Source of the DNA: an uncultured Acidobacteriota bacterium
Lineage (GTDB): Bacteria > Acidobacteriota > Thermoanaerobaculia > Gp7-AA8
Length of the DNA stretch: 64,000 bases
Assembly: GCA_963741955.1 (NCBI GenBank)
Contig: CAVUKB010000005.1
Coordinates: forward strand, 388,994 to 452,993
Reading direction: 5' to 3'
The notes under the pieces are model-generated. The model was not told the DNA's origin. It ran no database searches and saw only the letters and a program-made list of their open reading frames with translations. A program made the translations under genes and the position numbers. Positions 3,652-55,545 of the stretch are shown piece by piece (the first letter of the stretch is position 1; the number at the start of each line of letters is the position of its first letter).

Positions 3652-5249
3652 CTGATGACCCTTCTCCGTACGACGGCCGCTGCAACAGCGAGGACGGCCG
3701 CGAGAATTGCAAACCAGTCGCCGAATCTGACGTAGGCGGTGAGACGGTGCCGCGGAGCGAAGGTTGCCATGATGGTTCCCTTCCTTCCGACCGGCAACTC
3801 CTGCACGATCTTTCCGGTCGGATCGACCACCGCCGAGATTCCGGACGTCGCCGCCCGCAGCAGGTAGCGGTTGTCTTCGATCGCGCGGAGTCGCGCGTTG
3901 TTCAGGTGCTGGCGCGGCGCCGCTGTCTCCCCAAACCACCCGTCGTTGGTGATGGTCACCAGGACGTCGGCACCGTTGCGGACCTGCTGCGCCGTGATCT
4001 GCGGGTAAACCACCTCGTAGCAGATCGCCGGACCATAGCTGAACTTCCCTTTGAGGGGACGGTCATTGCTTCCGAACTGGAAATTGCCGACCGCGTGAAC
4101 GAGCTTCCGTGCAAAGAAGAGCATCTTCCGGAGAGGCACGTACTCACCGAACGGCACCAGCCGGATCTTGTCGTAACGGCCCCTGGTCGTCCCCACCGTC
4201 ACGATGTAAGCCGAGTTCCAGAGCTTGTCCGGATCGCGCGGGTCTTCCGCGACCGACCCGAGGATCACATCGATTCCTTCCAGACGGGAGATCGATTCGA
4301 CGTAGTCCCGAAGCATCGGTGTGGTCATGTAGACCACCGGCACCGTGGACTCCGGCCAGATGATGACGTCGGGCTTCGGTTTCGCTTTCGCCGCGGCGTC
4401 CGTCATCTCGGTCATGGTCATGAAGATCGAGAGCGTCTGCCCCTCGTCCCACTTCATCGTCTCGGGAATGTTCGGCTGGAGCAGTGCCGCGGTGTAGGTC
4501 TTCTCGTCGAGAATGCGGAAGTTCTCCCGATCGATGAGAACGATACCGGTGGTCCACCAGAGAAGACCGAAGACGAGCAGTCCGCCGATCACCACGATCT
4601 TCTTACCACCAGGGGCGGAGACGAGAACTATCCAAGCCAGGAGCGTGGAGAAGAGAACGATCATCGCGCCGATGCCGTAGGGACCGAAGACCGGCGCGAC
4701 CTGGACGATCGGCCGGAGATCGACCGCGGCAGCGGCGATCAGATTCCACGGAAAACCGGTCAGAAGAAACGTCCGGCCGAACTCCACCGCCGCCCAGACG
4801 AACGGGATCACGAACCACCAGCGGATCGCTTCCCCGGGCCGGATCAGGTGCACGAAGAGTGTGAAAAGGCCGCCGTAGAGCCCCAGGACGATCGACATCG
4901 CAACGAACAGAGCCACTCCGGTCGGATACGGAAGGCCGCCGTACTTCGACATCACCGTGATCACCCAGGGAACGTTGATCAGCCAGGTGACGGTGTAGCC
5001 GGCGCTGCCGAGGAAAAAGGCCTCGAGCTTTCCACTCGCGGTCACCGCGGCGAGGATCAGCGGGACGAACGCGACGAAGATCAGCGGGGCGAGATTGTAG
5101 TCCGGAAAGCTGACCGCGATCAGCACGCCGCCGAGCATCGCCGAAAGAAACCGCACCCACCGTGCGGCGAGCCATCGGCGGACCATCGTGGTGGCCGGGC
5201 CGTCCGTGGAGAGCGAGGTCTGGGAATCGGTAGTCGTCAATGCCGTCAT
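3648..5249 (-). CDS. lnt: Apolipoprotein N-acyltransferase
   Basis: 533 aa with a polytopic N-terminal membrane domain and a C-terminal CN-hydrolase domain (PAICYEVVYPQ). Its stop overlaps the prfB ATG (ATGA). The start could instead be the internal MVRRW. Confidence 0.85.
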   Translation of the reverse strand: MTALTTTDSQTSLSTDGPATTMVRRWLAARWVRFLSAMLGGVLIAVSFPDYNLAPLIFVAFVPLILAAVTASGKLEAFFLGSAGYTVTWLINVPWVITVMSKYGGLPYPTGVALFVAMSIVLGLYGGLFTLFVHLIRPGEAIRWWFVIPFVWAAVEFGRTFLLTGFPWNLIAAAAVDLRPIVQVAPVFGPYGIGAMIVLFSTLLAWIVLVSAPGGKKIVVIGGLLVFGLLWWTTGIVLIDRENFRILDEKTYTAALLQPNIPETMKWDEGQTLSIFMTMTEMTDAAAKAKPKPDVIIWPESTVPVVYMTTPMLRDYVESISRLEGIDVILGSVAEDPRDPDKLWNSAYIVTVGTTRGRYDKIRLVPFGEYVPLRKMLFFARKLVHAVGNFQFGSNDRPLKGKFSYGPAICYEVVYPQITAQQVRNGADVLVTITNDGWFGETAAPRQHLNNARLRAIEDNRYLLRAATSGISAVVDPTGKIVQELPVGRKGTIMATFAPRHRLTAYVRFGDWFAILAAVLAVAAAVVRRRVIR

Positions 5250-6111: not shown

Positions 6112-7398
6112 TCAAAGCACGAGTCGTACCGGCTGTTCGAGATATTGCTTCAGAGTGCGCAAAAATTCCGCACCGGTCGCCCCGTCGATGACACGATGGT
6201 CGCACGACATCGTCATTTTCATCATCTCACGAACCACAACCCGCCGCTCGCGCACGACTGGCTTCGGTCCCGCCGCCCCCACGGCCAGGATGGCCGAATT
6301 CGGTGGATTGATGATCGCGGTGAACTCCTCGATCCCGAACATCCCCAGATTCGAGATGGTGAACGTGCTTCCCTGATATTCGTCCGGCCGCAACCTCCGG
6401 CTTCTCGCCCTTTCGGCCAGATCCCTCCCCACGGCGGAGATCTCCATCACGCTTTTCCCGTCCGTGTTGCGGATGACCGGCGTGATCAGCCCTTCCGGAG
6501 TCGCCACTGCGATCCCGACGTGGACGTCTCCGTGCTGATGGATCGCCTCCGGAGTAAAACTCGAATTCACCGCCGGATGCCGCAGCAGCGAGAGCGCAGC
6601 TGCCCGGACGACGTAATCGTTCACGCTGGTCTTCACCCCTTCGATCTCGTTGATCTGCGCCCGCAGCGACATCAGCTCCGTCACATCCGCCTCGACGGTC
6701 AGGAAGAAATGAGGAACGGGTCCGATCGATTCGACCAGACGCCGGGCGATCGTCCGGCGCATCGCGGAGAGGGGAATCTGCTTCTCTTCGAGCGAGGGTT
6801 GCGGCATCCGCTGCACCGGCGCTTTCGTCGCGGAAGGCGGTTGCGACTTCGACGCCGGGCCCGATTCGGCCGCACGGCTGACGTCCGACGCGACGACGCG
6901 CCCCGCCGGACCGCTTCCCTGGACCGAACCGATGTCGACACCGAGCTCGCGCGCCATCCGGCGAGCCAGCGGTGACGAGCGCACGAAGCCGCCCGGCGGC
7001 GGCTCCGGAATCACGGGAGGGGTCATTTCGGGCGGAGCACCCGCCTCTGCAGGCGCGGCCTGCGCCTCTCCCTTCGCGGCCGGTTCCCGCTCCGGGGCAA
7101 CGGGTTTCTGCGGCGCTTCCTTCGTGCTCCCCTTCGCCGCCTTCTTCTTCGGGGCTTCTTCCCCTGGTCGCTGCACTCGCGAGAGCACCGCGCCGACTTG
7201 AGCAGTCTCCCCTTCTGCCACTTCGATCTCGCCGAGAACGCCGTCGTCTTCGGCTTCGAGATCGAGGTTCACCTTGTCCGTCTCGATCTCCAGCAGGGGC
7301 TCGCCGCGTTTCACCGCGTCGCCCGGTTTCCTGTACCAACGGACGACCTTTCCTTCGGTCATCGCGTCGCCCATCTTCGGCATGATGATCTCGGACAT
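6112..7398 (-). CDS. Dihydrolipoamide acyltransferase (E2 of the pyruvate / 2-oxoacid dehydrogenase complex)
   Basis: 428 aa with an N-terminal lipoyl domain (IMPKMGDAMTEGKVVRWYRKPGD...EIETDKV), an Ala/Pro linker, a subunit-binding domain, and the catalytic signature DHRVIDGA. Confidence 0.9.
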   Translation of the reverse strand: MSEIIMPKMGDAMTEGKVVRWYRKPGDAVKRGEPLLEIETDKVNLDLEAEDDGVLGEIEVAEGETAQVGAVLSRVQRPGEEAPKKKAAKGSTKEAPQKPVAPEREPAAKGEAQAAPAEAGAPPEMTPPVIPEPPPGGFVRSSPLARRMARELGVDIGSVQGSGPAGRVVASDVSRAAESGPASKSQPPSATKAPVQRMPQPSLEEKQIPLSAMRRTIARRLVESIGPVPHFFLTVEADVTELMSLRAQINEIEGVKTSVNDYVVRAAALSLLRHPAVNSSFTPEAIHQHGDVHVGIAVATPEGLITPVIRNTDGKSVMEISAVGRDLAERARSRRLRPDEYQGSTFTISNLGMFGIEEFTAIINPPNSAILAVGAAGPKPVVRERRVVVREMMKMTMSCDHRVIDGATGAEFLRTLKQYLEQPVRLVL

Positions 7399-7441
7399 AG
7401 TTACTTCCCACCCTGCATCGATTCGACCGTTCCCGGTGCGT

Positions 7442-8428
7442 TCAGCCCCGGTACATCACGCCCCGCACAGCCCGGATCACGTCCTGCTCGTGCGGAACGG
7501 CGAGCAGCTCGAGGTTTCGCGCGTACGGCATCGGCACGTCCTCGCCGGTCACGCGGGCGACCGGCGCGTCGAGCTCGTCGAAGACCGTCTCGGATATGCT
7601 CGCGGCGATCTCCGCCGCCGCACCGAACGGCTTCCACTGCTCCTGGACCACCACTGCCCGATGCGTACGGCGTACCGACTGATAGACCGGGTCGAGGTCG
7701 AGCGGACGGAGCGTGCGGAGGTCGATCACCTCCGCTTCGATCCCATCTTCCGCCGCGAGCTTCTCCGCCGCTGCAAGCGAGAGCTGCAGCATTCTGCTGT
7801 ATGAGACGATCGTCACGTCGTCGCCCTCGCGCGCAATCCGCGATTTGCCGAACGGAACCAGAGCGTCGGGATCGTCCGGCACTTCGCCTTTGATTCCGTA
7901 CAGCGCCGCGTTCTCGAGGAAGATCACCGGATCCTTCCCCCGGATCGCGGTCTTGAGCATTCCCTTCACATCGGCCGGCGTTCCAGGCGCGACGACCTTC
8001 AGTCCCGGGAAGTGACCGTAGAACGACTCGAAGGACTGCGAGTGCTGCGCCGACAACTGAACACCTGCCCCCTGGGGGCCGCGGATCACGATCGGGACGT
8101 CGACCTGACCACCAGAGAAGTAGCGGATCTTCGCCGCGTGGTTCAGGATCTGGTCTGCGGCGACGATGGCGAAATTGAAGGTCATCATCTCCACGATCGG
8201 ATGAAGGCCCATCATCGCCATTCCGATCGCGGTTCCGACCATTCCGGCTTCTGCGATCGGAGTGTCGACCACGCGCCTGGGGCCGTACTTCTTCAGCAGA
8301 CCGGCGGTGATGCGGAACGTCCCTTCGTACACTCCGATGTCTTCGCCCAGGAGGAGCACCGAGCCGTCGCGGTCCATCTCCTCGACCAGCGCATCGTGAA
8401 TCGCGTCACGATAGGTGCGCTCAGCCAC
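7442..8428 (-). CDS. pdhB: Pyruvate dehydrogenase E1 component, beta subunit
   Basis: Transketolase-like beta subunit (AERTYRDAIHDALVEEMDRD...). A GTG start lies 8 nt after an AAGGAG Shine-Dalgarno and overlaps the pdhA stop (GTGGCTGA). The upstream in-frame extension of ORF 7442..8764 is rejected. Confidence 0.85.
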   Translation of the reverse strand: MAERTYRDAIHDALVEEMDRDGSVLLLGEDIGVYEGTFRITAGLLKKYGPRRVVDTPIAEAGMVGTAIGMAMMGLHPIVEMMTFNFAIVAADQILNHAAKIRYFSGGQVDVPIVIRGPQGAGVQLSAQHSQSFESFYGHFPGLKVVAPGTPADVKGMLKTAIRGKDPVIFLENAALYGIKGEVPDDPDALVPFGKSRIAREGDDVTIVSYSRMLQLSLAAAEKLAAEDGIEAEVIDLRTLRPLDLDPVYQSVRRTHRAVVVQEQWKPFGAAAEIAASISETVFDELDAPVARVTGEDVPMPYARNLELLAVPHEQDVIRAVRGVMYRG

Positions 8429-12599: not shown

Positions 12600-12880
12600 A
12601 CGCCACGACCGTGCGTCTTCGGCGCCGGTCGGATCCTCGTTCATCTCAGATCATCGTCTCCGATCCCCGGTGCCTCTCAGATCCTCGTTCCTCGATCTCA
12701 GATCCTCGTTCCCCGGTGCCGCTCAGATCCTCGATCCTCGATCTCCGATCCCCGGTGCCTTTCAGATCCTCGATTCTCGATCCCCGATCCTCGATGCCTC
12801 TCAGATCCTCGATCCCCGATCCTCGATGCCTCTCAGATCCTCGATCCCAGATACTAGATCCTAGATGCCTCTCCGATGCC
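12600..12880. repeat. Degenerate tandem repeat with a ~32-bp period, built from CCTCGATC octamers (cagatcctcgatccccgatcctcgatgcctct)
   Basis: Seen directly. It lies between the convergent small ORF and the der 3' end. It is the reverse-complement family of the 18267-18435 repeat and the same orientation as 33077-33130. Confidence 0.85.
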
Positions 12881-17227: not shown

Positions 17228-18267
17228 CGCGGAGCGGGACGACAGTTCTGATTCTCGCCGGTGGCGCCGGCACCCGGCTGTGGCCTCTGAGCACGGACGA
17301 ACGCCCCAAGCAGTTTCTCCGGATCTTCGCAGGGCGATCGCTCCTCGAGCTGACCTGGTCGCGACTCGCCCCGCTCGCCGCATCACCGTCGCATCTGTTC
17401 GTCGCGACGAACGAACGATACCGTCCGCTGGTGCGCGAGCAGATCCCCGAGCTGCCGGAGGAGAACATCCTGGTCGAGCCGGCCCGGCGCAACACCGCTC
17501 CGGCCATCGCGGCATGCTGCCGGGTGATCGCGCGCCGCCACCCCGACGCGGTGGTGGCGATCTTCCCTTCCGACCACGCGATCGAGGATCGTGACGCGGA
17601 CGACGGATCGTTCGCAGCCGTCGCGTCGACGGCGATCGATTTCGCGGCGTCGCACGACGCGCTGGTCACCATCGGAATCCGTCCCACCGAGCCGAACACC
17701 GGCTTCGGGTACCTCGAGCTCGGAGAGGAGCTCGCGACCGGCGTCGTCGGTGTCCGCCGCTTCGTGGAGAAACCGGATCTCGTGACTGCGCAGCAGTACG
17801 TCGACTCGCAACGCTTTCTCTGGAACGGCGGGATGTTCGTCTGGCGTCTTTCCTCCTTCTTCGAGATTCTCGAAAAGGTCGCTCCGGAGATCGCACGCGG
17901 GAGTCTCCGCTTCGTGGAAGCGGATGATGAGCAGCGGCGATCTCTGTACGAGGCGATGCCGTCGATCTCGATCGACTATGCGGTGATGGAGAAGGCAGCA
18001 GGCGTCGCCACGGTGTCGGCGCGGTTCGAATGGTCGGACGTCGGCAGCTGGAAGGCGGTGGCGAGGTTCGCCGGGGCCTCGATTCCAGACAACGTATTCG
18101 TCGAAGACTCCTCCCGCCTCTTCGTCCGCTCCGATCGCACCCGCCCCGTCGGGGTCGTCGGTCTCGACAACGTCGCGGTGATCGAGACCGAGGAAGGACT
18201 CCTGGTGCTGAACCTCGAGAAGTCCGAGTTGCTCAGCGCTCTCGTGAAGCGGATGGGAGGCATCTAG
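17224..18267 (+). CDS. Mannose-1-phosphate guanylyltransferase (GDP-mannose pyrophosphorylase)
   Basis: [24 protein letters not shown]... nucleotidyltransferase fold. ATG overlaps the upstream stop (ATGA). Confidence 0.85.
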
Positions 18268-18435
18268 GATCGAGGATCGAGGATCGAGGATCGAGGATCG
18301 AGGATCGAGGATCGAGGATCGAGGATCGAGGATCGAGGCATCGAGGATCGAGGCATCGAGGCATCGAGGCATCGAGGATCGAAGATCGAGGCCAAACCCG
18401 TCGGACCTGTCGGCCCTGTCCGACAAGTCTGACGC
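18267..18435. repeat. Octamer tandem repeats: (GGATCGAG)x~13, then (GCATCGAG)x4, then GTCGGACCTGTCGGCCCTGTCCGAC
   Basis: Seen directly. Same motif families as 70-355. Confidence 0.9.
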
Positions 18436-27655: not shown

Positions 27656-28051
27656 GGTGACGCGTCCTCTAGCCCGCATTTCTCACACCGTCTCGTCGCG
27701 AGGAGGCGGAGAGCGGCTTGGATGCAAGGCGCGCGCAGCTTCGGCGACGAAGGCATAGTCGTAACTACGTCGAGGAGCCGAAGCTGCGCGCAACGCAGCA
27801 GACAGGCTGCTATCCGTCTCCGCAGCAGAGACGGTGTGAGAAATGCGGGTTAGGGGTGCGGATCCTCTGATCCGCCTCGAGAATCGTGTTGCTCGCGATG
27901 AAGAGTGAGGCTGTGGCTGGATGCGGAGCATCGGTCACGCGACCGTCAGGCCGACGAAGCTCCGCCTCTGCCGCAGCGATCGTTTCGATCCGCTCTGAAT
28001 ACGATTGCCTCCGCGGATCGGAAGATCCGCTCCCCACGGTGACGCGTCCTC
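27656..28051. repeat. MITE-like structured intergenic island bounded by direct repeats (ggtgacgcgtcctc at 27656-27669 and 28038-28051). It carries inverted copies of a conserved 35-bp repeat.
   Basis: The 35-bp unit cgcagcagagacgRtgtgagaaatgcgggYtagg occurs at 27822-27855 and, inverted, at 27669-27694. A nested hairpin gcgcgcagcttcggc/gccgaagctgcgcgc and a palindrome gcggatcctctgatccgc lie between them. Related copies are at 26723-26745 and 50695-50728. Confidence 0.6.
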
Positions 28052-31261: not shown

Positions 31262-32875
31262 ATGGCGGATCGGGCGGCGGAAACGGAAGAACGACTCAGC
31301 GAGATCCTCAATCTCTTCTCGCGAAAAATCGGATCGACAAAAGGTGCGCTCTACGCCACACCTGGCGGAAAGGATCCCTACGAGCTGGTGACCTGGTACG
31401 GCTTCGCGTCGACTCCGCGGCGCCAGGTCAGCCGGAGCGACCTGATCGTCAACCGCCTCAACACACGACGGTCCGCTTTCTGGGTCAACGGCGCTTCGAG
31501 CGATCCACGCCTGTACGAGCTGCTGTTTCACAGCGGGACCGACTCCATTCTCGTGGTTCCGATCTATCTCCAGAACCAGCTCGTCGGCTTCTTCGATCTC
31601 CGCGACAAAGCGGGAGGAGAACCGTTCGGGAATTCCGATCTCCCCCACGCGCGGGAGATCATCGAACAGATTCTTCCTCTTCTCTCACGCGGGGTTGTGA
31701 CTTCCTCATCCGGCAACGACAGGACCGCTTTGGCTGCAGCGCCCCCGGTGGATGAGGTGGCCGCACGCGAAGACGTGCTCCGCAGGACGATCCAGAAAGC
31801 GCATACGATCGCAGACCGCGATCTCGCGCCGCACCGGGCTACGACCCGCACTCTCTCCGAAGCCGAGATCATGTCCATCGTTCCGGCACTCTCGCCTCTC
31901 CTTCAGCTCTCCGGCGTCTCGATGGCCGTATTCACCGCGTTCGGACATCTCGGCAATATTCAGCAGATCATCTCCCGGGCGTCGATCACCGACGAGGCGA
32001 TGCGCGGATTCGAGCAGAAACTGAAGAACTGGATCCGGAAGCACTGGAACCTGAAGATCTCCGACACCACCCGATCGACGGTGACTCTCCCGTTCGGCGA
32101 ATCCGGGCCGAAGGTCCAGCCTGCGCACATCGGCACGGTGCTCAGCGCCGCCGTCGAGGTGAATGGAATTCCTGGTCTGGTCCTCAGCGTCGGATTCGAG
32201 ACTGCGCCCAGCCGCCAGACCAAAGCTGCTCTCGCGCTCAACCTCGAGCTCGTGCAGCAGATGCTCCACTACTCACTTTCCCATCTGCGGATGCGCACTG
32301 CGAATCAGAAGATCGCGGAGCGCCTCCTGGAGCCGGACTTCCGCCGCTATCCCCGTCTGGCGGATCACTCCATGCGGGTGGCGATGCTCGCCGAACAGTT
32401 CGCGCAGTATCTCGACCTCTCGGCCGCCGAGATGGAGAACATCCGGCTCGCGGCATATCTCCACGACGCCGGAATGCGCCTTCTCGACTACGACCGGCTC
32501 TACGAGAAGCCCTCTTTCAACGATGACGACCGCCGTCTCGTGCGAGAGCACCCGGTACTCGGCGCGGCGTTGATCGCCGAATCAGCCCTCGGAGAAGAAA
32601 TCGCGCGGGTCGTCCTCCACCACCACGAACAGCCGGACGGAAAAGGGTATCCTCACGGACTGACCGGAGAGCAGATTCCTCTCGGATCACGCATTCTCCG
32701 GATTTGCGAAACGTTCGACGCGATGACCTCTCACCACTCGTACCACGAGCCGGTTCCCGAGAGCGCCGCGCTCGCCAGCATCGTCCGGCTTGCCGGAGCG
32801 GAGTTCGAGCTCGACCTCGCCCACAAGTTCAACGAGATGCTCGTCAGGGCGTCTACCTTCGGAATGAACACCTGA
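31262..32875 (+). CDS. HD-GYP domain c-di-GMP phosphodiesterase with N-terminal GAF-like sensor domains
   Basis: The C-terminus has HD...HHHEQPDGKGYPHGL, the HD-GYP signature. Confidence 0.8.
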   Translation: MADRAAETEERLSEILNLFSRKIGSTKGALYATPGGKDPYELVTWYGFASTPRRQVSRSDLIVNRLNTRRSAFWVNGASSDPRLYELLFHSGTDSILVVPIYLQNQLVGFFDLRDKAGGEPFGNSDLPHAREIIEQILPLLSRGVVTSSSGNDRTALAAAPPVDEVAAREDVLRRTIQKAHTIADRDLAPHRATTRTLSEAEIMSIVPALSPLLQLSGVSMAVFTAFGHLGNIQQIISRASITDEAMRGFEQKLKNWIRKHWNLKISDTTRSTVTLPFGESGPKVQPAHIGTVLSAAVEVNGIPGLVLSVGFETAPSRQTKAALALNLELVQQMLHYSLSHLRMRTANQKIAERLLEPDFRRYPRLADHSMRVAMLAEQFAQYLDLSAAEMENIRLAAYLHDAGMRLLDYDRLYEKPSFNDDDRRLVREHPVLGAALIAESALGEEIARVVLHHHEQPDGKGYPHGLTGEQIPLGSRILRICETFDAMTSHHSYHEPVPESAALASIVRLAGAEFELDLAHKFNEMLVRASTFGMNT

Positions 32876-33076
32876 ATAAATCCCAGGACTGCGTCCTGGG
32901 CTATTGTCAATCGCCCCTACGGGGCTCCCGGAGAATCGTCTTTCGCCCTTGAATCCCAGGACTGCGTCCTGGGCTACTGTCAAACGCCCCGACGGGGCTC
33001 TCGGATCGTGTTCTTCCTCCAATCAGTCCCAGGACTGCGTCCTGGGCTACTATCAAACGCCCCTACGGGGCTCCCC
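32876..33076. repeat. Three tandem copies of a 73-bp unit (unit starts 32882, 32955, 33028), each with two perfect hairpins: cccagga-ctgcg-tcctggg and gcccc-tac-ggggc
   Basis: Seen directly, between the convergent HD-GYP gene and the GGDEF-EAL gene. REP-like or stacked bidirectional terminators. The spacers are too short for CRISPR. Confidence 0.85.
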
Positions 33077-33127
33077 GATCCTCGATCCCCGATCCTCGAT
33101 CTCAGATCTTAGATCTTAGATGCCTCT

Positions 33128-44152: not shown

Positions 44153-46180
44153 ATGGAGCACCTCGCCGCCTTCGCCTTCGCCGTTCCTCTCGTCGTGGCC
44201 GGCCTCCTCGTGGCCGGATCGAGCCGGATCCCGCGCGTGGTGGTCGATCTCGCGACCCTCGGGACTGCGATCTTTTCGACGACGTGCTGCATCATTCTCT
44301 TCGTCGCGTCGAGAGGTGCGCCGCTCGTCTACTGGTTCGGCGAATGGACTCCGCGAGGTCGCGCCGCGATCGGAATCGACTTCGTGGTCGACTCGCTCGG
44401 AGCCGGCGTCGCCTCGGTTGCCGGACTCCTGGTCGTCTTCGCACTGATCTACTCGATCCGTTACTTCGACGAGGTGAAGGCGCTCTTCCACGCGCTGATG
44501 CTGATCTTCCTCGCGTCGATGACCGCGTTCTCCTTCGCGGGCGATCTCTTCAACATCTTCGTCTTCTTCGAGCTTATGAGCATCTCCGCCTTCGCTCTCA
44601 CCGGCTACAAGATCGAAGAGGACTCGCTGGAGGGAGCATTCAACTTCGGGATCACCAACAGCATCGCGGGCTTTCTCCTCCTCACCTCGATCGGCTATCT
44701 CTATGCCCGGACCGGAAGTCTGAATCTCGCCGGGATGGGCGATCGCCTCTCGCTATCCCCTCACGATCCCCTCGTCGCGATGGCGTTCGTGTTCGGCATC
44801 ACCGCGCTCTTCATCAAGGGAGGCATCGTCCCGTTCCACTTCTGGGTCGCCGACGCTCACGCCGTCGCACCGATTCCGGTCTGCGTCGTTCTTTCCGGAA
44901 TCCTCGACCCTCTCTGGATCTACGGAGCGACGCAGTTCTACTGGACGCTCTTCAGTGGCCCTCTCGAGCCGTTGCAGCATCGCCTCCGAATCCTCTTCCT
45001 GATCCTCGGGCTTCTCACCGCCGTCGTCGGCGCTCTGATGTGCTCCACCCAACGTCATCTCAAACGGATGCTTGCATTCTCGTCGGTGAGTCACATGGGA
45101 ACCGTGCTGGCAGGATTCGCGTTCTTCGGCCCCGCCGCTCTCGCCGGCGCCTTGCTCTATCTCGCCGGACACGCGTTCATCAAAGGGAGCCTCTTCTTCG
45201 GAACCGGGAACCTGATGAACCGCTTCGGCTCGGTGGACGAGATCGACCTCTACGGGCGGGGAAAGGAGATGCGGGGGACAGGTCTTCTCTTTGCGATCGG
45301 CGGCCTCGCTCTGGGCGGACTTCCGCCGTTCGGAATCTGGTTCGCGGACACCATCGTCGATCACGAGATGACGCTACACGGCTTCTGGTGGAGTGGCGTC
45401 GTTCTCGTCGCGGCAACGGCGCTCACCGGGGCGACCGTTCTCCGCGCCGGGGGTCACGTCTTTCTCGGGGCAGGAACCATCGAAGATCTGCAGAAAAAGG
45501 CACCGACCGCCGACGAGAGAAAGGAGACGTCGGGATCGAGCGGGAGAACGCCCCTGGTGATGATCCTCCCGGTGCTCCTGACTCTTCTCGCCGCACTTCT
45601 TCCGGCCACCATCCGGCCGGTACCGGCCGCGTTCCGTGAAGCCGCAGAGCACTTCGTCGATCGTTCCGAGTATGCGGCACTGGTCCTGGACGGACGAGTC
45701 CCCCCTCCTGCCGTCGAAGCGCAGCCACGAGGCGCAACGCAGATCGGCGATGCGGCGCTGCGCGGCCTTCTGGCGACAGGGCTGATGCTCGTGATGGCGA
45801 CCTGGATGCTCCTCCGCGCTCCGGCCGTTCGCCGGCCGCGCTCGCGCAATACCGCGGGCATCATCGTCCGGCCTCTGCGCAAATCGCTCGAGCTCCTCGG
45901 CCGTCTTCACAGCGGAAAGGTCGCCGACTACGTCGCCTGGATCGTGGTCGGAGTCGCGGTTCTCGGTCTCGTCCTGATCTTCCCGCCATGCGCCGCGTCC
46001 AGCCCGCGAGGTCCGAGAGGTTCAGACCTCGAAGGGCCGAGCGTGTCGTGCGTAGCGCCGGTATCGAGGCCCGGTCTTTCAATTCGCGCAAATGAAATCC
46101 TGATCACCCGCAGTACGTCCGTCCATCCGATATCGTCGCGACGGAGACACCCGCCCGTCCACAGCAAATCGCGCAAATGA
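44153..46180 (+). CDS. mrpD: Mrp antiporter subunit D/A-like (NuoL/NuoN/MrpD family proton-pumping subunit)
   Basis: Conserved NuoN/MrpD core (GGIVPFHFWVADAH, FSSVSHMG). The last ~40 codons run into the 267-bp repeat array. Confidence 0.75.
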   Translation: MEHLAAFAFAVPLVVAGLLVAGSSRIPRVVVDLATLGTAIFSTTCCIILFVASRGAPLVYWFGEWTPRGRAAIGIDFVVDSLGAGVASVAGLLVVFALIYSIRYFDEVKALFHALMLIFLASMTAFSFAGDLFNIFVFFELMSISAFALTGYKIEEDSLEGAFNFGITNSIAGFLLLTSIGYLYARTGSLNLAGMGDRLSLSPHDPLVAMAFVFGITALFIKGGIVPFHFWVADAHAVAPIPVCVVLSGILDPLWIYGATQFYWTLFSGPLEPLQHRLRILFLILGLLTAVVGALMCSTQRHLKRMLAFSSVSHMGTVLAGFAFFGPAALAGALLYLAGHAFIKGSLFFGTGNLMNRFGSVDEIDLYGRGKEMRGTGLLFAIGGLALGGLPPFGIWFADTIVDHEMTLHGFWWSGVVLVAATALTGATVLRAGGHVFLGAGTIEDLQKKAPTADERKETSGSSGRTPLVMILPVLLTLLAALLPATIRPVPAAFREAAEHFVDRSEYAALVLDGRVPPPAVEAQPRGATQIGDAALRGLLATGLMLVMATWMLLRAPAVRRPRSRNTAGIIVRPLRKSLELLGRLHSGKVADYVAWIVVGVAVLGLVLIFPPCAASSPRGPRGSDLEGPSVSCVAPVSRPGLSIRANEILITRSTSVHPISSRRRHPPVHSKSRK

Positions 46181-47078
46181 AATCGCGTTCGCGCGCGGTC
46201 CGTCTCTCCACCACGAATCGTCCGCCGCGCAGGCTCTCGTCCATCCATGGCAAATCCGTCCCCCGCGCCTGACGGCGGGGCCTAACGAGATGAGGCCCTT
46301 CGCACTGTCCCGCCCCATGATCCCGAGAGCCGGTACTCCCGGTCTTTCAATTCGCGCAAATGAAATCCTGATCACGCGCAGTACGTCCGTCCATCCGATA
46401 TCGCCGCGACGGAGACACCCGCCCGTCCACAGCAATTCGCGCAAATGAAATCGCGTTCGCGTCGGGCCATCTCTCCACCACGAATCGTCCGCCGCGCAGG
46501 CTCTCGTCCATCCATGGCAAATCCGTCCCCCGCGCCTGACGGCGGGGCCTAACGAGATGAGGCCCTTCGCACTGTCCCGCCCCATGATCCCGAGAGCCCG
46601 TACTCCCGGTCTTTCAAATCGCGCAAATGAAATCCTGATCACCCGCAGTACGTCCGTCCATCCGATATCGCCGCGACGGAGACACCCGCCCGTCCTCAGC
46701 AATTCGCGCAAATGAAATCGCGTTCGCGCGCGGTCCGTCTCTCCACCACGAATCGTCCGCCGCGCAGACTCTCGTCCATCCATGGCAAATCGGTCCCCCG
46801 CGCCTGACGGCGGGGCCTAACGAGATGAGGCCCTTCGCACTGTCCCGCCCCATGATCCCGAGAGCCCGTACTCCCGGTCTTTCAAATCGCGCAAATGCAA
46901 TCCTGATCACGCGCAGTAAGTCCGTCCATCCGATATCGCCGCGACGGAGACACCCTCCCGTCCACAGCAATTCGCGCAAATGAAATCGCGTTCGCGCGCG
47001 GTCCATCTCTCCACCACGAATCGTCCGCCGCGCAGGCTCTCGTCCATCCATGGCAAATCCGTCCCCCCGCGCCTGACG
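46055..47078. repeat. About 3.8 tandem copies of a ~267-bp unit (unit starts 46071, 46339, 46606, 46874). Each unit has two copies of the AT-rich 16-mer tcgcgcaaatgaaatc.
   Basis: Seen directly. Copies are over 95% identical. Intergenic between mrpD and the DUF4388 gene. Confidence 0.9.
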
Positions 47079-47173
47079 GAACGATCGCTCATTCGGGTGA
47101 CGACAAAACGGCCCATCGGGTTCATAGTGGAAAGATCGAATCTGCGGCAACGCACGACTCTCGAGGTGATCTC

Positions 47174-47704
47174 ATGCCCATACGTGGAGATCTGAAGAGC
47201 ATGCACGTAGGCGAACTGCTCGTGTGGATCGGACAGTTTCACAAGAGCGGCATGCTCGAGCTCCGCACCGCTGAGGGAGTGCACTCACTGGCCTTCGAAC
47301 AGGGAAACCTGATCTTCTCCGCCTCGCCAACCGAGGAAGGAACTCTCGGCCGGCTCCTGATCGAGCGGGGCGCGGTGAGCGAAGAGGAATACCAGAACGC
47401 GAGGGACGAGAGAGAGAGGCGATCCGTCGCCGTCGCGAAGATCCTTCGCGATCTCCAGCTCCTTTCGGAGGAAGATGCGATTCGATTCCTGAGGAAGAAG
47501 GCAGAGAAGGAGCTCTTCACTCTGCTCCAATGCACCGACGGCGAGTTCTGCTTCGACGAGTCGATCATGCCGCAGCTCGATCTGCTTCCTCTCAGGCTGG
47601 ACCTCGACGGCGTGCTTCTCCGGGTCACGCAACACATCGATGAAAAAGGTGAGTATGATTTCGACTCGTCCGGGATCCACGTACGGCTCCCGAAAGAGAG
47701 GTAA
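47174..47704 (+). CDS. DUF4388 domain protein
   Basis: MPIRGDLKSMHVGELLVWIGQFHKSGMLELRTAEGVHSLAFEQGNLIFS... matches the DUF4388 N-terminal pattern. Confidence 0.6.
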   Translation: MPIRGDLKSMHVGELLVWIGQFHKSGMLELRTAEGVHSLAFEQGNLIFSASPTEEGTLGRLLIERGAVSEEEYQNARDERERRSVAVAKILRDLQLLSEEDAIRFLRKKAEKELFTLLQCTDGEFCFDESIMPQLDLLPLRLDLDGVLLRVTQHIDEKGEYDFDSSGIHVRLPKER

Positions 47705-50694: not shown

Positions 50695-50728
50695 CGCAGC
50701 AGAGACGATGTGAGAAATGCGGGCTAGG
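50695..50728. repeat. Copy of the 35-bp MITE-like repeat (cagcagagacgatgtgagaaatgcgggctagg)
   Basis: Differs by 2 mismatches from the copy at 27822-27855. Confidence 0.8.
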
Positions 50729-51071
50729 AGTCTGCGCGATAGGAACGTCCGTCGCGAGAAAGCGAAGCAGCGAGGCCAAATTCGATCGGATTTGAGGTGC
50801 GTAGCGGTGGCTACTCGCCGAAAATCCGGACGAATTTGGACCGCTGATCCGCTTTCGCAGCAGGACAGTTTCTACCGCGCAGACTCCCAGGGAAGAACGG
50901 GCGAAGAGCCGCCGGGCGCAGGACCGCTATAATCGTCGCTGCCCGTCGCGGCGACACCCTTCGAACGAAACGGACTTCGTCGAACGATCGTGCCTGCCGC
51001 GGTCCACCAACCAATGGGAACGCGGGGCCGGCCCCGGGCCGTCCGTGGCGCTCCCGGGAGAACGAAACGAA

Positions 51072-52740: not shown

Positions 52741-53458
52741 TCCGCGAAGCGGGTCGCGCGTTCCGCGGGTCGCGCGTCCTGTGGGTCGCGCGTCTCGCGC
52801 GAGGCTCCCCGGCATCCTGCCGGGGAGCGATGGCGGCAACGCCACGCAAAACGCGCATCTCGCGCCGCAGTCCGTTCGTCTCTCGACTCTCGGGACGATC
52901 CTCGTATCTCGCACCAGGCAGGGCGGCGCGGGACGCCGCCCTGCATCGGGCGAGGACGCCCAACCCACGACTGTGGGTCGCGCGTCTCGCGCGAGGCTCC
53001 CCGGCATCCTGCCGGGGAGCGATGGCGGCAACCAAACGCGGATCGCTCCTCTCGCGCCGCAGTCCGTTCGTCTCTCGACTCTCGGGACGATCCTTGTATC
53101 TCGCACCAGGCAGGGCGGCGCGGGACGCCGCCCTGCATCGGGCGAGGACGCCCAACCCACGACTGTGGGTCGCGCGTCTCGCGCGAGGCTCCCCGGCATC
53201 CTGCCGGGGAGCGATGGCGGCAACCAAACGCGGATCGCTCCTCTCGCGCCGCAGTCCGTTCGTCTCTCGACTCTCGGGACGATCCTCGTATCTCGCACCA
53301 GGCAGGGCGGCGCGGGACGCCGCCCTGCATCGGGCGAGGACGCCCAACCCACTGGGCATCGGGCGAGGACGCCCAACCCACTGGGCATCGGACGGGACGT
53401 CCAACCCACGACTGTGGGTCGCGCGTCTCGCGCGAGGCTCCCCGGCATCCTGCCGGGG
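52741..53458. repeat. About 3.5 tandem copies of a ~190-bp unit ending in the hairpin ccccggcatcctgccgggg (hairpins at 52807, 53000, 53191, 53440)
   Basis: Seen directly. The array continues at 55263-55545 beyond the IS insertion. Confidence 0.9.
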
Positions 53459-53492
53459 ACTGGAGTTTGGCGTTTCTCGAGCAAGGCGCGAG

Positions 53493-54905
53493 CTACGAAG
53501 TGGCGTACTGGACAGCCATTTCGGGGGTGACAGCGGATTTCGAGCGCTTCAGGTGTCGTGCGACGGGGGTCTGGAAGTCGGTGAAATTGGGGGGTTCGAA
53601 GTTGCGGATGTGGCGAATGCAGGCGGATCGCATCGCGCGAAGGTACTGGCCGGTGGGTATTCGCCACTGATCGGGGATATCGTTGTCTCTCCACTTGGGC
53701 ATCAGTTCGGGGGGCGCAGTGGAGCCGAGGCCGAAGCAATCGGCGGCAGCGAGGAGCATCATCGAGTAGACGGCTACGGCGAAAGCGGGCAGCGAGTCGA
53801 CCGATCGCCGGTTGCGCACCTGCGCCTGGCCGACACCGAAGATCTGCTTTTCGTCGCGGTGATTGACCTCGATATCCCAGCGGCGGAAGTAGGCTTGGAC
53901 GAGCTCGACGAGCGAGAGTTTCAGGTCGGTACAGATCAGGAACGCCGGTTTGCGATACAGCAGGCGTGATTTCTTGCGGAGCCGATAGCCCAGTGGCCGG
54001 ATCACGACGAGCCGCAGAGGCAGTTCATAACCCGAAGTTTTCCAAAGCACGGGACCGATGGTCTTGATCGAACAGGCGTGTTCACGACCCGAGGCCCAGA
54101 CTTGGACCTGTTGCCAGTCGATGGATTGGTCCACGCGGAGTTGATCGGGTGTTGGGGCCTGATCGCCATACCAGCGCTTGCGTCCGCGAAGCGGTTGAGA
54201 GTTTGGAGGAAAGAACAGCTTCGCGTCGCCTCGGATGCGACCGATCAGGATCGTTCGTTCCGGCAAGTTCCGCAGAACCGTACGGTTGGTGTAACCGCCG
54301 TCAACCACCGGCATCAGCACGCGCTCGCTCGCTCCGAGCTGGTCAAAGTCCTTGCGAGTTTGGATCAGCAGACGCGTTGCACCGATGGAAAGATTCTGCT
54401 CTTTCTGCTGGCGACGATACTCGGCACGTTCCTGCTCGGTTGCTCCGGCCCCCGGGCGAACCGCCGGAGGCTGGTGATTGAACCGGATCGGGAAGCTGCG
54501 CGCCGGACCGGCAGACTGGCCAGTTAAAGGAACACTGATCGCAGCCTGAATGAACCGTTGGGCGCGGATCAAGTTCGTGTGGAAAGGCGGCGACATCGGA
54601 TCGCGCTGATAACTCACGCCTGGGATCTTCATGCCCGTCTTGCGCAACTTCGTGTCATCCAGCGGCAGCACCAGCGGTGCGTCGAGCGGCAAGTACGCGA
54701 GCAGGTGTCGTTCGATGACTCTGAACATCTCGCTCACATCGAACCGACCCTCCGAGAAAACGCGATAGTCTGCCGACCAGTCCTGCTGCGGATCGCGGCC
54801 TGCTTCAATCATTCCGCTTACCGTGTGTCGCCCGGTGCAGTTGAGCAGGCCGATGGCCAACCCACGAACCCGCTGAAGCACCCGAGCATCACAGGATCCA
54901 TTCAA
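53493..54905 (-). CDS. DDE transposase, IS4-like (YREK signature)
   Basis: 470 aa with VDGGY and YFRRWDIEVNHRDEKQ (Y-x2-R-x3-E-x6-K). Confidence 0.8.
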   Translation of the reverse strand: MNGSCDARVLQRVRGLAIGLLNCTGRHTVSGMIEAGRDPQQDWSADYRVFSEGRFDVSEMFRVIERHLLAYLPLDAPLVLPLDDTKLRKTGMKIPGVSYQRDPMSPPFHTNLIRAQRFIQAAISVPLTGQSAGPARSFPIRFNHQPPAVRPGAGATEQERAEYRRQQKEQNLSIGATRLLIQTRKDFDQLGASERVLMPVVDGGYTNRTVLRNLPERTILIGRIRGDAKLFFPPNSQPLRGRKRWYGDQAPTPDQLRVDQSIDWQQVQVWASGREHACSIKTIGPVLWKTSGYELPLRLVVIRPLGYRLRKKSRLLYRKPAFLICTDLKLSLVELVQAYFRRWDIEVNHRDEKQIFGVGQAQVRNRRSVDSLPAFAVAVYSMMLLAAADCFGLGSTAPPELMPKWRDNDIPDQWRIPTGQYLRAMRSACIRHIRNFEPPNFTDFQTPVARHLKRSKSAVTPEMAVQYATS

Positions 54906-54945
54906 TTCGTCGAAGATCGCGTTGAATGAGCGAAGAAGATTTCGA

Positions 54946-55155
54946 TCAGCGTTTTTTTTTGACCCGCTTCGCTTCGACGGTTCCGGTCGGATCCTTTGCC
55001 CGCTTGAGGATCAGCGTTCGCTTGTCCTCGATGACCCATTCGACGATCTCACCGCGAATGAATTCACAAGCTTGGGCCACGGCCGCGGGAAGGTTCACGT
55101 ACCACTGCCTGCTCTTTGCACGAGCGATCAGCTGCACTTTGGTTGGAAATCCCAT
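54946..55155 (-). CDS. AbrB/MazE-fold small DNA-binding protein (69 aa) carried inside the IS
   Basis: [54 protein letters not shown], a looped-hinge-helix-like pattern. The upstream in-frame extension of ORF 54946..55296 runs into the repeat and is rejected. Confidence 0.5.
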
Positions 55156-55262
55156 GGTGACCTCCTTCTGGTCTAGTGATATAACTAGATACCACGGGAC
55201 GAAAAAAAAGTCCAGAATTCCTGGACTTCCGCCCAACGACTCCGAGTTCCGCCAAACTCCAG

Positions 55263-55545
55263 TCCCCGGCATCCTGCCGGGGAGCGATGGCAGCAATCAA
55301 ACGCAGATCCCGCCTCTCGCGCCGCGGTCCGTTCGTCTCTCGACTCTCGGGACGATCCTTGTATCTCGCACCAGGCAGGGCGGCGCGGGACGCCGCCCTG
55401 CATCGGGCGAGGACGCCCAACCCACTGGGCACCGGACGGGATGTCCAACCCACTCGAGCATCGGACGGGACCTTCAGTCATCGAACAGGACGTCCAACCC
55501 GCTTGCCCGGGCTCGGGTTGAGCCCGGACCCACTCTCGCGAGATA
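55263..55545. repeat. Continuation (about 1.3 units) of the 190-bp repeat on the right flank of the IS. It ends in the hairpin ccgggctcgggttgagcccgg.
   Basis: The sequence matches the units at 52741-53458. Confidence 0.85.

Follow-up and report, generated by a model that had tools for sequence, protein, structure and literature searches.

Background

Several described repeat systems can be compared with the locus reported here. In the neisserial intergenic mosaic elements (NIMEs), dRS3 20-mers flank RS segments of 50-150 bp, and dRS3 is an inverted repeat (ATTCCC-N8-GGGAAT) that is a known integration target. The MIRU/VNTR loci of Mycobacterium tuberculosis consist of tandem units of 46-101 bp with small in-phase ORFs. 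They occupy several intergenic spacers per genome, each between co-directional genes, extend into the end of the preceding ORF and vary in copy number. The BOX elements of Streptococcus pneumoniae and the BIMEs/REP of Enterobacteria are dispersed intergenic repeats of modular build, with one module reiterated variably in tandem; they are lineage-specific, their function is partly understood, and BOX/REP form stable hairpins. The STRR/LTRR of heterocystous cyanobacteria are 7-9-nt motifs in tandem at many intergenic loci. In eukaryotic alpha satellite, diverged monomers, each with a short conserved box, are grouped into a higher-order unit that is then amplified.

The tandem array described here is located between an mrpD-like ORF and a DUF4388 gene in a 64-kb window (the whole 64,000-nucleotide stretch of DNA that was analyzed). 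It probably belongs to a family of non-coding, hierarchically organized tandem repeats that is dispersed and lineage-specific, i.e. satellite or mosaic intergenic DNA, and would be one of its loci. As in the NIMEs, the family forms non-coding intergenic arrays at many dispersed loci of one lineage, with a conserved sequence of ~20 nt alternating with 50-150-nt segments from few families. In contrast to the NIMEs, the conserved core is non-palindromic, with no sequence similarity to dRS3 and no linked recombinase, and the arrays are regular, high-identity tandem amplifications. The MIRU arrangement is matched in the position between co-directional genes, in the presence of several loci per genome, in the overlap with the upstream ORF (here the mrpD-like stop, in an ATGA overlap) and in a suspected variability of copy number. 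However, the unit here is 268 nt, out of frame and without a coding signature, and it is unrelated to MIRUs in sequence and host. BOX and BIMEs/REP resemble the family in modularity, dispersal and lineage specificity, whereas the modules here have no structure beyond that of shuffles; no RAYT-like transposase was found in the DNA examined. As the core has no inverted repeat and there is no stable fold, the array is an analogue and not a member of dRS3/REP/BOX. The short repeats of this lineage, (AAWTCGCGC)n, (ATTTCGG)n and (GATCCTC)n, are reminiscent of STRR/LTRR but are nested in longer modules and higher-order units. The alpha satellite likeness lies in diverged monomers (~60% identity outside the core) that share a short conserved box and are grouped in a higher-order unit amplified at 96% identity, although this array is kilobase-scale and intergenic in a bacterial chromosome, with no centromere or segregation evidence.

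Anatomy of the array

The coordinates of the array and its components are given in Table 1. TRF placed the array at 46070-47079 with a period of 268, 3.8 copies, 96% matches, no indels and a score of 1885, while similarity of the unit ends in alignment A1 extends 5' to ~46050 (GCCGGTA...) when a 3-7-nt indel is allowed. This confirmed the array reported in the initial annotation, with unit lengths of 268, 267 and 268. As in a minisatellite, a unit of at least 10 nt is repeated head to tail with high identity beyond chance. The GC content of the array (63%) and of the window (64%) is below the ~70% that had been assumed for the genome, and the + strand of the array is C-rich (C 39%, G 24%).

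Table 1. Positions of the repeat components, neighboring genes and ORFs within the window.
Feature	Position	Strand	Basis	Remarks
Whole tandem array	46050..47079	+	TRF, alignment A1, composition	3.8 higher-order units
Unit 1	46070..46337	+		268 nt; provides the final ~37 codons and the stop codon of the mrpD-like ORF
Unit 2	46338..46604	+	Alignment A1	267 nt; private 1-nt deletion, substitutions in A'
Unit 3	46605..46872	+	Alignment A1	268 nt
Unit 4, partial	46873..47079	+		A, A' and 27 nt from the start of B
Module A (type 2), copy 1	46080..46164	+
Module A, other copies	46348-46432, 46615-46699, 46883-46967	+
Module A' (type 1), copy 1	46165..46250	+
Module A', other copies	46433-46517, 46700-46785, 46968-47053	+
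Segment B, copy 1	46251..46347	+		97 nt
Segment B, other copies	46518-46614, 46786-46882	+		First 27 nt also at 47054-47079
Core 16-mer TCGCGCAAATGAAATC	46084..46099	+		First of eight
MrpD-like (Proton_antipo_M) ORF	44153..46180	+		675 aa
10-bp inverted repeat	46007..46031	+		Directly 3' of the conserved mrpD-like end
DUF4388 (PatA_N) gene	47174..47704	+		94 nt downstream of the array
Spurious ORF through the array	46079..46783	-		234 aa; deposited as P0241
Second spurious ORF	46614-47150	-

The 268-nt unit is itself a higher-order repeat, comprised of two related ~85-nt modules (A and A') and the unrelated segment B. The first 20 nt of A and A' are identical (20/20) and the remainder matches at 39/67 positions (58%; Fisher p = 2e-4), indicating that the two modules are homologous. 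Every copy of module A opens with the core CAAWTCGCGCAAATGAAATC; module A' opens with the same core and closes with CCATCCATGG, followed by CAAATCC. Segment B lacks the core, carries two short G+C hairpins and, across its three full copies, is free of substitutions except at one G/C position near the 3' end. Pairwise testing of segment B against A and A' was not significant, and no relationship was detectable; a third module in this position is hinted at solely by the three-core units of P0249. Private variants of unit 4 include a mismatched core (AAATGCAATC). A module HMM recovered exactly eight modules in the window, the rest of which contains no further copy of the unit, the modules or the core sites. 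Several other tandem arrays are present in the window.

Exact copies of the core 16-mer start at 46084, 46169, 46352, 46437, 46619, 46704 and 46972, and an eighth copy with one mismatch starts at 46887, all on the + strand; the eight copies previously counted, two per unit, are thus present, seven of them exact. With up to three mismatches allowed, the window contains 10 matches compared with 0.87 expected, and 0 shuffles reached 10. The sites are not evenly spaced as had been proposed, since the distance between cores alternates between 85 and 182-183 nt. Likewise, the description of the 16-mer as conspicuously AT-rich is correct for the AAATGAAAT portion only, the whole core being 44% GC. 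By reading of the sequence, the core is not an inverted repeat, and in a comparison by eye none of the sigma-54, IHF, DnaA box, parS, dif, Fur, LacI-family/cre or ARG box motifs fits it.

Flanking genes and coding potential

Homologues of the MrpD-like protein, none with more than 47% identity, are ~605 aa in length, and their alignment stops at residue 608 of 675; the conserved part of the ORF ends near 45992. The array therefore overlaps a non-conserved read-through tail of 62 codons and not the conserved protein. The earlier statement that the array starts inside the last codons of mrpD applies to the ORF as called, the TGA stop of which (46178-46180) falls within the second core, but not to the conserved MrpD-like protein. 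The inverted repeat between the conserved end and the array is possibly the 3' hairpin with which the operon originally ended.

The reported adjacency to the DUF4388 gene was upheld, with a measured gap of 94 nt in place of 95. The gene is a neighbor of the array and not an established part of the element. Genes from -6 kb to +5.6 kb of the array comprise Mrp subunits, DUF4388, ankyrin, peptidase S10 and unannotated small ORFs. Orthologues of the DUF4388 gene (54-63% identity) have other upstream genes and no synteny, and the motif is absent from their upstream regions in relatives (110-410 nt). This speaks against a locus-specific regulator.

The array is non-coding, as originally described. 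No Pfam domain was found in the array ORFs, and their GC3 is 0.59-0.64 (0.63 for the 234-aa ORF), compared with 0.75-0.79 in real genes. The spurious minus-strand ORFs exist because the G-rich strand is poor in stop codons. Small + strand ORFs with an ATGA stop/start overlap with mrpD, i.e. a MIRU-like coupling, were rejected on the basis of GC3, rare codons and neutral substitutions.

A dispersed, lineage-specific repeat family

The wider family came to light when the spurious minus-strand ORF (P0241) was used as query in a protein search, which retrieved P0242-P0245; an exhaustive HMMER scan found only 10 such ORFs among 1.84 billion representatives. The core-bearing ORFs sit on four large contigs (1.47, 1.30, 0.71 and 0.54 Mb) and on one 14-kb ENA contig (L017). 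At least seven further arrays occur on the three other large contigs (0.54, 0.71 and 1.30 Mb), known from translated ORFs alone. In the family ORFs the core is translated in each of the three frames (DFICA, ISFAR, FHLR), one ORF holds more than 20 cores, and there are sister arrays with 4-9 units. The four large contigs appear to belong to one genome, and L017 presumably to a different strain or species. The satellite reading proposed in the initial annotation is supported in that the array DNA is non-coding and part of a dispersed, lineage-specific family.

Contig L017 contains two core-bearing arrays and three solitary modules, together with two additional related arrays that lack an exact core. 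Eleven core copies are within two mismatches of GATTTCATTTGCGCG, 10 of the 11 being exact. The four arrays, with periods of 95-159 nt, contain nested (ATTTGCGCG)n in which n varies; the core runs on into the 9-bp microsatellite (AAWTCGCGC)n, and the number of 9-mers differs between units. The module HMM found 12 full-length modules in this contig. Module A' of the window is 82-85% identical over 101 nt to the type-1 modules of L017, and module A is 78% identical to the type-2 modules. In alignment A2 the core is invariant across arrays, with GATTTGC and GATTTCA.TTGCGCGA flanking a variable interior. With related copies at several loci and a modular, non-coding, intergenic build, the repeats have the features of a dispersed mosaic family of the NIME/BIME/BOX kind.

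The family was found only on contigs of one Thermoanaerobaculia lineage in the collections searched, namely 15 billion proteins, GTDB representative genomes, JGI metagenomes, IMG/VR, plasmids and phages. Public DNA matches to the 20-mer CAAWTCGCGCAAATGAAATC (three in genome_contigs, four in metagenome_contigs and one in viral_contigs) were all single occurrences in unrelated, lower-GC, mostly coding DNA, with ~2 expected by chance in 596 Gb according to our calculation; L006 is the sole possible solitary relative among them. The triple 9-mer pattern matched nothing in viral contigs, and blastn of the unit against plasmid and phage collections gave no match. No description of the repeat family was found in a literature search.

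Comparison with other element classes

Searches of the array against Rfam gave no match up to E = 10 and none at gathering level. Fold z-scores of +0.42 and -0.16 indicate that the array is no more structured than shuffles, and the alifold consensus of 13 diverged modules (-4.9 and 0 kcal/mol by orientation, covariation term +0.31) revealed no covariation. No sigma-70 consensus was found in the array on either strand and no tRNA or tmRNA was detected, while the one weak terminator-like site in the array was not above shuffles. The window gave no replication-origin signal and its GC skew had no turn.

Several element classes were considered and rejected. A CRISPR array, with identical 23-47-nt repeats and unique spacers, is excluded as each unit repeats one set of segments (A, A' and B) around its cores; no cas genes are present from -6 kb to +5.6 kb of the array. 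An iteron-type origin or partition site would have 17-22-bp direct repeats at ~11/22-bp phasing beside a rep or par gene and an AT-rich unwinding region; it is inconsistent with the 85/183-nt spacing and with the lack of a nearby rep/par gene, GC-skew turn or plasmid/phage match. A structured ncRNA or sRNA gene array was rejected for lack of a covariance-model match and of conserved structure with covariation. A type III toxin-antitoxin system (ToxI-like, ~36-nt repeats) does not agree with the period of 268 or with a downstream gene that is DUF4388/PatA_N and not of the toxN/abiE type. An integrated viroid-like or rolling-circle multimer, expected to have units of 250-400 nt with a strong self-complementary fold or a ribozyme, was rejected based upon the fold z-scores and the absence of any Rfam ribozyme family.

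Copy number and alternative explanations

The array has 3.8 copies in the window and 1.8 copies in the short-read contig L001, whose flanks are 100% identical over 11.2 kb. L001 is a fragmented contig that terminates within the next tandem array, so that short-read collapse is as likely an explanation as real variation; a hypervariable locus is plausible but unproven. That the assembler generated extra copies at a true locus of one or two units is very unlikely. Such an artefact would account for the 1.8 copies between identical flanks and for the support of units 2 and 3 by the 1.47-Mb contig alone, but ~14 distinct private variants and one indel across the four units show that these are not copies of one read, and the private variants of units 1 and 4 are reproduced exactly in the independent assembly L001. 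Furthermore, the termination of L001 in the next array and the break of Logan contig L002 41 nt into this one are the expected behavior of short reads at a real repeat, and sister arrays of several units occur elsewhere. Still less credible is a real repeat protein encoded by the minus-strand ORFs (P0241 and relatives). ORFs of 178-641 aa do cross the arrays and are called by gene finders; however, a period of 268 is not a multiple of three and shifts the frame in every unit, the 234-aa ORF is open only through the private 1-nt deletion of unit 2, and one DNA core is read in all three frames. These ORFs also lack a Pfam domain, have a GC3 equal to bulk GC and match only members of the same repeat family, and the substitutions between module copies (nine non-synonymous to four synonymous by our count) are near neutral.

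The initial annotation raised the possibility of promoter-like or regulatory sites. In a locus-specific form of this idea, the eight cores would be operators or promoter-like elements that allow a transcription factor to control the DUF4388 operon or the mrp end, with copy number tuning expression. The position of the array just upstream of DUF4388 on the same strand, a core much better conserved than its surroundings and, by our reading, a core-like TCGCGAAATCAAATATAAT with a perfect TATAAT just upstream of a gene start in L017 are in agreement with such a role. It is nevertheless improbable, given the lack of a sigma-70-type site on both strands, the absence from the core, by our reading, of any hexamer that combines A at -11 with T at -7, the motif-free upstream regions and differing upstream genes of DUF4388 orthologues, the lack of more sites in the remainder of the window, and the occurrence of the same core in arrays at many unrelated loci in both orientations. 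Dedicated regulation of DUF4388 or the mrp genes by the array is unlikely. Rho loading sites are generally C-rich, G-poor and unstructured, and the composition of the sense strand and its structure, which is not above shuffles, resemble this description. The alternative in this case would be a transcribed repeat with a role at the RNA level, either as a set of sRNA genes or as a long, C-rich 3' region without structure, on which Rho is loaded and by which mrp is insulated from DUF4388. The C-rich strand is also sense to the co-directional flanking genes at array 1 of L017, and another tandem array of the window consists of three copies of Acido-Lenti-1, a known RNA motif. This role is nonetheless unlikely, as no Rfam match, no promoter, and no conserved structure or covariation among the 13 diverged modules on either strand were found, and the single weak terminator-like site does not exceed shuffles. 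In addition, the family arrays of L017 occur in both orientations relative to their neighbors, the two concordant orientation cases are not significant, and Rho loading does not need repetition.

Proposed origin and possible function

The preferred reading is that of satellite or mosaic intergenic DNA. Its building block is a module of ~85-90 nt bounded by the invariant core, which lengthens to a ~27-nt block (TCCAYRGCAAWTCGCGCAAATGAAATC) where modules abut, with an interior of ~60 nt of which there are a few old subtypes. At this locus a type 2 module (A), a type 1 module (A') and segment B, possibly a decayed third module, make up the 268-nt higher-order unit, which appears to have been amplified recently to 3.8 copies. 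Gain and loss of units presumably took place at the DNA level, through slipped-strand mispairing or unequal recombination between near-identical units, and the 9-bp sub-repeat (AAWTCGCGC)n of the sister arrays would be subject to the same processes. The array locus itself is likely to be neutral.

As the first 20 nt are identical between module types and the core is invariant across arrays, the core is a reasonable candidate for a protein recognition site. Its identity across arrays would most likely reflect recognition by a DNA-binding protein or by a recombination or mobilization protein. A perfect core and subtypes that are 78-85% conserved between loci exceed the expectation for a neutral satellite, suggesting that a host function is possible. 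That the ~27-nt block and the 9-bp reiterations are the recognition site of a dedicated putative protein, and the arrays an active system, is conceivable but unlikely. Such a system could be a self-spreading family of modules mobilized via the core, which would be the acidobacterial equivalent of REP/RAYT or dRS3, or it could be a set of arrays that load proteins and so give shape to the chromosome or insulate transcription units. If the latter were true, expansion and contraction would lead to heritable variation.

Under the satellite reading, an apparent one-off regulatory array becomes one locus of a hierarchical family, in which a 9-bp microsatellite lies in ~88-nt modules and these in 160-270-nt higher-order units. 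Short-read assemblies break at or collapse such arrays, gene callers convert them into database "proteins" (P0241-P0250), and at this locus the array adds a false C-terminal tail to the MrpD-like protein. The arrays could serve as strain markers, and the perfectly conserved core could be used as bait for finding the putative protein that reads it.

Array anatomy and position

A single tandem array occupies 46070-47079 (Tandem Repeats Finder: period 268, 3.8 copies, 96% matches, score 1885), bearing out the tandem array of the initial annotation. The units are 268, 267, and 268 nt long, and similarity of the unit ends extends back to approximately 46050 if a small indel is allowed. The 16-mer TCGCGCAAATGAAATC was found as seven exact copies and one with a single mismatch, all on the plus strand; at up to 3 mismatches it had 10 matches in the window versus 0.87 expected. 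Spacing was not even across the eight sites, as had been described, instead alternating between 85 nt and 182-183 nt, and GC content was 64% for the window and 63% for the array rather than the roughly 70% ascribed to the genome.

Each 268-nt unit is comprised of module A (85 nt), a related module A' (86 nt), and an unrelated segment B (97 nt). The first 20 nt, CAAWTCGCGCAAATGAAATC, are identical in A and A', while the other 67 columns are just 58% identical (Fisher p = 2e-4); with the 20-mer removed, the alignment of A with A' still beats 98.5% of shuffles. Among the four units, about 14 columns vary and there is one indel, in a mosaic pattern suggesting exchange between units. The sole substitution among the three full copies of B was one G/C position near the 3' end, a near-invariance that by our own estimate is not significant, the differences being too few.

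The mrpD-like ORF (44153-46180; Proton_antipo_M) ends within the array, its TGA belonging to the second 16-mer. Its homologues are approximately 605 aa and the alignment stops at residue 608 of 675; thus the array overlaps a non-conserved read-through tail, and the claim that it begins inside the last mrpD codons is true of the ORF but not of the conserved protein. The ancestral stop codon is apparently absent. A 10-bp hairpin (46007-46031) precedes the array-overlapping tail, and the ORF continues 62 codons beyond the end of all homologues (45992-46180), through this hairpin and into the array. A gap of 94 nt separates the array end from the start of the DUF4388 gene.

Other assemblies and orthologous loci

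Two further contigs encode the flanking DUF4388 protein: L001 from NCBI (24 kb, GCA_049580305.1) and a Logan contig of 3.7 kb, the latter beginning 41 nt within the last unit. In L001 the array flanks match the window at 100% identity, for 5.4 kb on the left side and 5.8 kb on the right side, but only 1.8 units lie between them, with unit 1 joined to unit 4 via the invariant B and all variants matching. This comparison between assemblies, which had been proposed at the outset, confirms that at least two distinct copies of the unit are real, while the difference between 3.8 and 1.8 units may be either a true copy-number difference or short-read collapse. L001, a short-read contig, terminates inside the window's next tandem array, of 192-nt units (at 52834).

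The window belongs to a Thermoanaerobaculia MAG. The nearest MrpD-like homologue had only 46% identity. Orthologues of DUF4388, at 50-63% identity, occur commonly among Thermoanaerobaculia. In those looked up, the upstream genes differed from the window's and the 110-410-nt upstream regions lacked the 16-mer even with 3 mismatches allowed, so the array does not represent a control region conserved with this gene. Furthermore, no sigma-70-type promoter was found in the array, and the proposed role as a dedicated DUF4388 regulator appears unlikely from these sequences. In the closest DUF4388 relatives (63% identity), samples show a 96-bp difference in the upstream spacer (L011 1240-1340 versus L012 1240), which is due to additional copies of the REP-like palindrome GCGGGCTAGCAGCCCGC; this palindrome has no relation to the array in the window.

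A dispersed repeat family

Exact scans with the 20-mer in GTDB representative genomes, JGI metagenomes, and IMG/VR returned only single matches in unrelated DNA. The family was found using a spurious 234-aa minus-strand ORF of the array (46079-46783), deposited as a protein (P0241), as the query. It matched four other such 'proteins', and an exhaustive HMMER scan of 1.84 billion representatives yielded ten in all (P0241-P0250, up to 641 aa), which stand in public protein collections, are domain-less, and read the same DNA core in three frames. These ORFs repeat the frames DFICA, ISFAR, and FHLR of the minus-strand core GATTTCATTTGCGCGA, with more than 20 core copies in P0249; plus-strand frames (RANEI, AQMK) also occur in some. 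The ten ORFs are located on contigs of 1,466,178 (the window's), 1,299,627, 705,193, and 544,001 nt and on one 14-kb ENA contig (L017). We infer that a single long-read MAG accounts for the four large contigs, each of which is recorded from both NCBI and ENA; in that case the family would be dispersed through the genome in at least eight arrays, those on the other large contigs being read from translated ORFs. A possible solitary diverged module lies on a metagenome contig of 60% GC (WNGO01007810.1, 1355-1429; a 75-nt HMM match with E = 1.8e-5 in which the 20-mer core is exact). It is intergenic, and an 834-aa ORF follows 82 nt downstream.

In L017 (63% GC), tandem arrays with periods of 159, approximately 150, 95/191, and 116 nt make up about 3 kb of 10.8 kb and occupy nearly all intergenic gaps of an exopolysaccharide locus. 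The contig carries 11 core copies within 2 mismatches (10 exact) and 12 full-length modules by the module HMM. Here the core continues as (ATTTGCGCG)n, a microsatellite of 9-bp repeats whose number differs between units. Read in the opposite orientation, 9-mers alternate between AATTCGCGC and AAATCGCGC, exactly the A/T polymorphism found at position W in the 20-mer of the window, so that the 16-mer corresponds to the n = 1 microsatellite state plus TGAAATC.

An alignment of 13 diverged modules spans about 100 nt and has a variable interior between two invariant ends, GATTTGC and GATTTCA.TTGCGCGA. Compared with the L017 modules, window A' is 82-85% identical to type 1 over 101 nt and window A approximately 78% identical to type 2, so both module types predate the window array. 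L017 and the window also have in common a 167-nt hairpin element at 93% identity, indicating an origin in closely related organisms. A fourth L017 array (7050-7981, 116 nt x 8.2), made of (ATTTCGG)n heptamers, bears a degenerate module end, GAACACGATTGCACG, which suggests further subfamilies.

Nature of the array

A protein-coding repeat was rejected: the 268-nt period disrupts the reading frame, the 234-aa ORF being kept open only by a private 1-nt deletion in unit 2; GC3 was 0.59-0.64 in every array ORF versus 0.75-0.79 in neighbouring genes; and the long minus-strand ORFs had no Pfam domain. A role at the RNA level, such as Rho loading on the sense transcript, is possible given a C-rich (C 39%, G 24%), unstructured composition, but an Rfam search of the array up to E = 10 gave no match, and neither strand of the module alignment showed a conserved RNA structure. 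Folding energy was no better than shuffles (z = +0.42 and -0.16 for the two strands), a tRNA search found none, and the single, weak terminator-like site equaled the number in shuffles. GC skew had no turn, comparison with plasmids and phages gave no similarity, and no cas, rep, par, or recombinase genes were present within approximately 6 kb.

The array probably belongs, as one locus among several, to a lineage-specific family of hierarchical satellites or mosaic intergenic repeats; the satellite reading offered initially is supported by its non-coding character and by the related arrays on L017 and other contigs. In the most recent step, the three-part unit would have been amplified to 3.8 copies at 96% identity. 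Slipped-strand mispairing and unequal recombination between long direct repeats give rise to such tandem amplification, and either may have acted at the window locus; such a process would fit both the changing number of 9-mers in sister arrays and the contrast between 3.8 and 1.8 units. The core is invariant though array interiors have diverged 15-40%, which argues that it is read by something, most simply a putative DNA-binding or recombination protein.

The closest analogues are the NIMEs of Neisseria, in which a conserved 20-mer alternates with 50-150-nt segments, as well as MIRU/VNTR loci, BOX and BIME elements, and cyanobacterial STRR repeats, while eukaryotic higher-order satellites are a formal analogue. 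The family is of the same general kind but lacks the defining features tested, having a non-palindromic core, no hairpins, and no in-phase ORFs. It is therefore an analogue and a member of none of them, and constitutes a new, undescribed family, of which a literature search found no description; its conserved core and three-level hierarchy merit follow-up.

Other repeats in the window

Tandem repeats total roughly 2.4 kb of the 64-kb window.

Other repeats and mobile elements in the window
Feature	Position	Details
Acido-Lenti-1 RNA (RF01687), three head-to-tail	32882-33072 (array 32875-33075)	73-nt unit; 41-47 bits, gathering score 37 (Rfam)
Second long-period array	52779-53409, resumes 55263-55476	192 nt x 3.0, 97%, plus 29-nt repeats
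IS inside 192-nt array	53460-55262	1803 bp; 13-nt terminal inverted repeat CTGGAGTTTGGCG
DDE_5 transposase of the IS	53493-54905	minus strand
Near-perfect hairpin element, 167 nt	50724-50890	between ankyrin and peptidase S10 genes; MFE -103.5 kcal/mol, z = -10.2
Heptamer satellites (GATCCTC/GATCCCC)n	12632-12877, 18257-18391, 33072-33126	intergenic, either strand
Other 7-nt arrays	52-355	window start

The third heptamer satellite (GATCCYC) directly follows the Acido-Lenti-1 array. A 21-nt hairpin, TCCCCGGCATCCTGCCGGGGA, is present on both flanks of the IS, beyond which the 192-nt unit resumes. The 167-nt hairpin resembles a dispersed element of the MITE or IVS type, with related fragments at 27805-28039; the L017 copy (4601-4767) is located immediately upstream of the gene for a 23S_rRNA_IVP (four-helix-bundle) protein.
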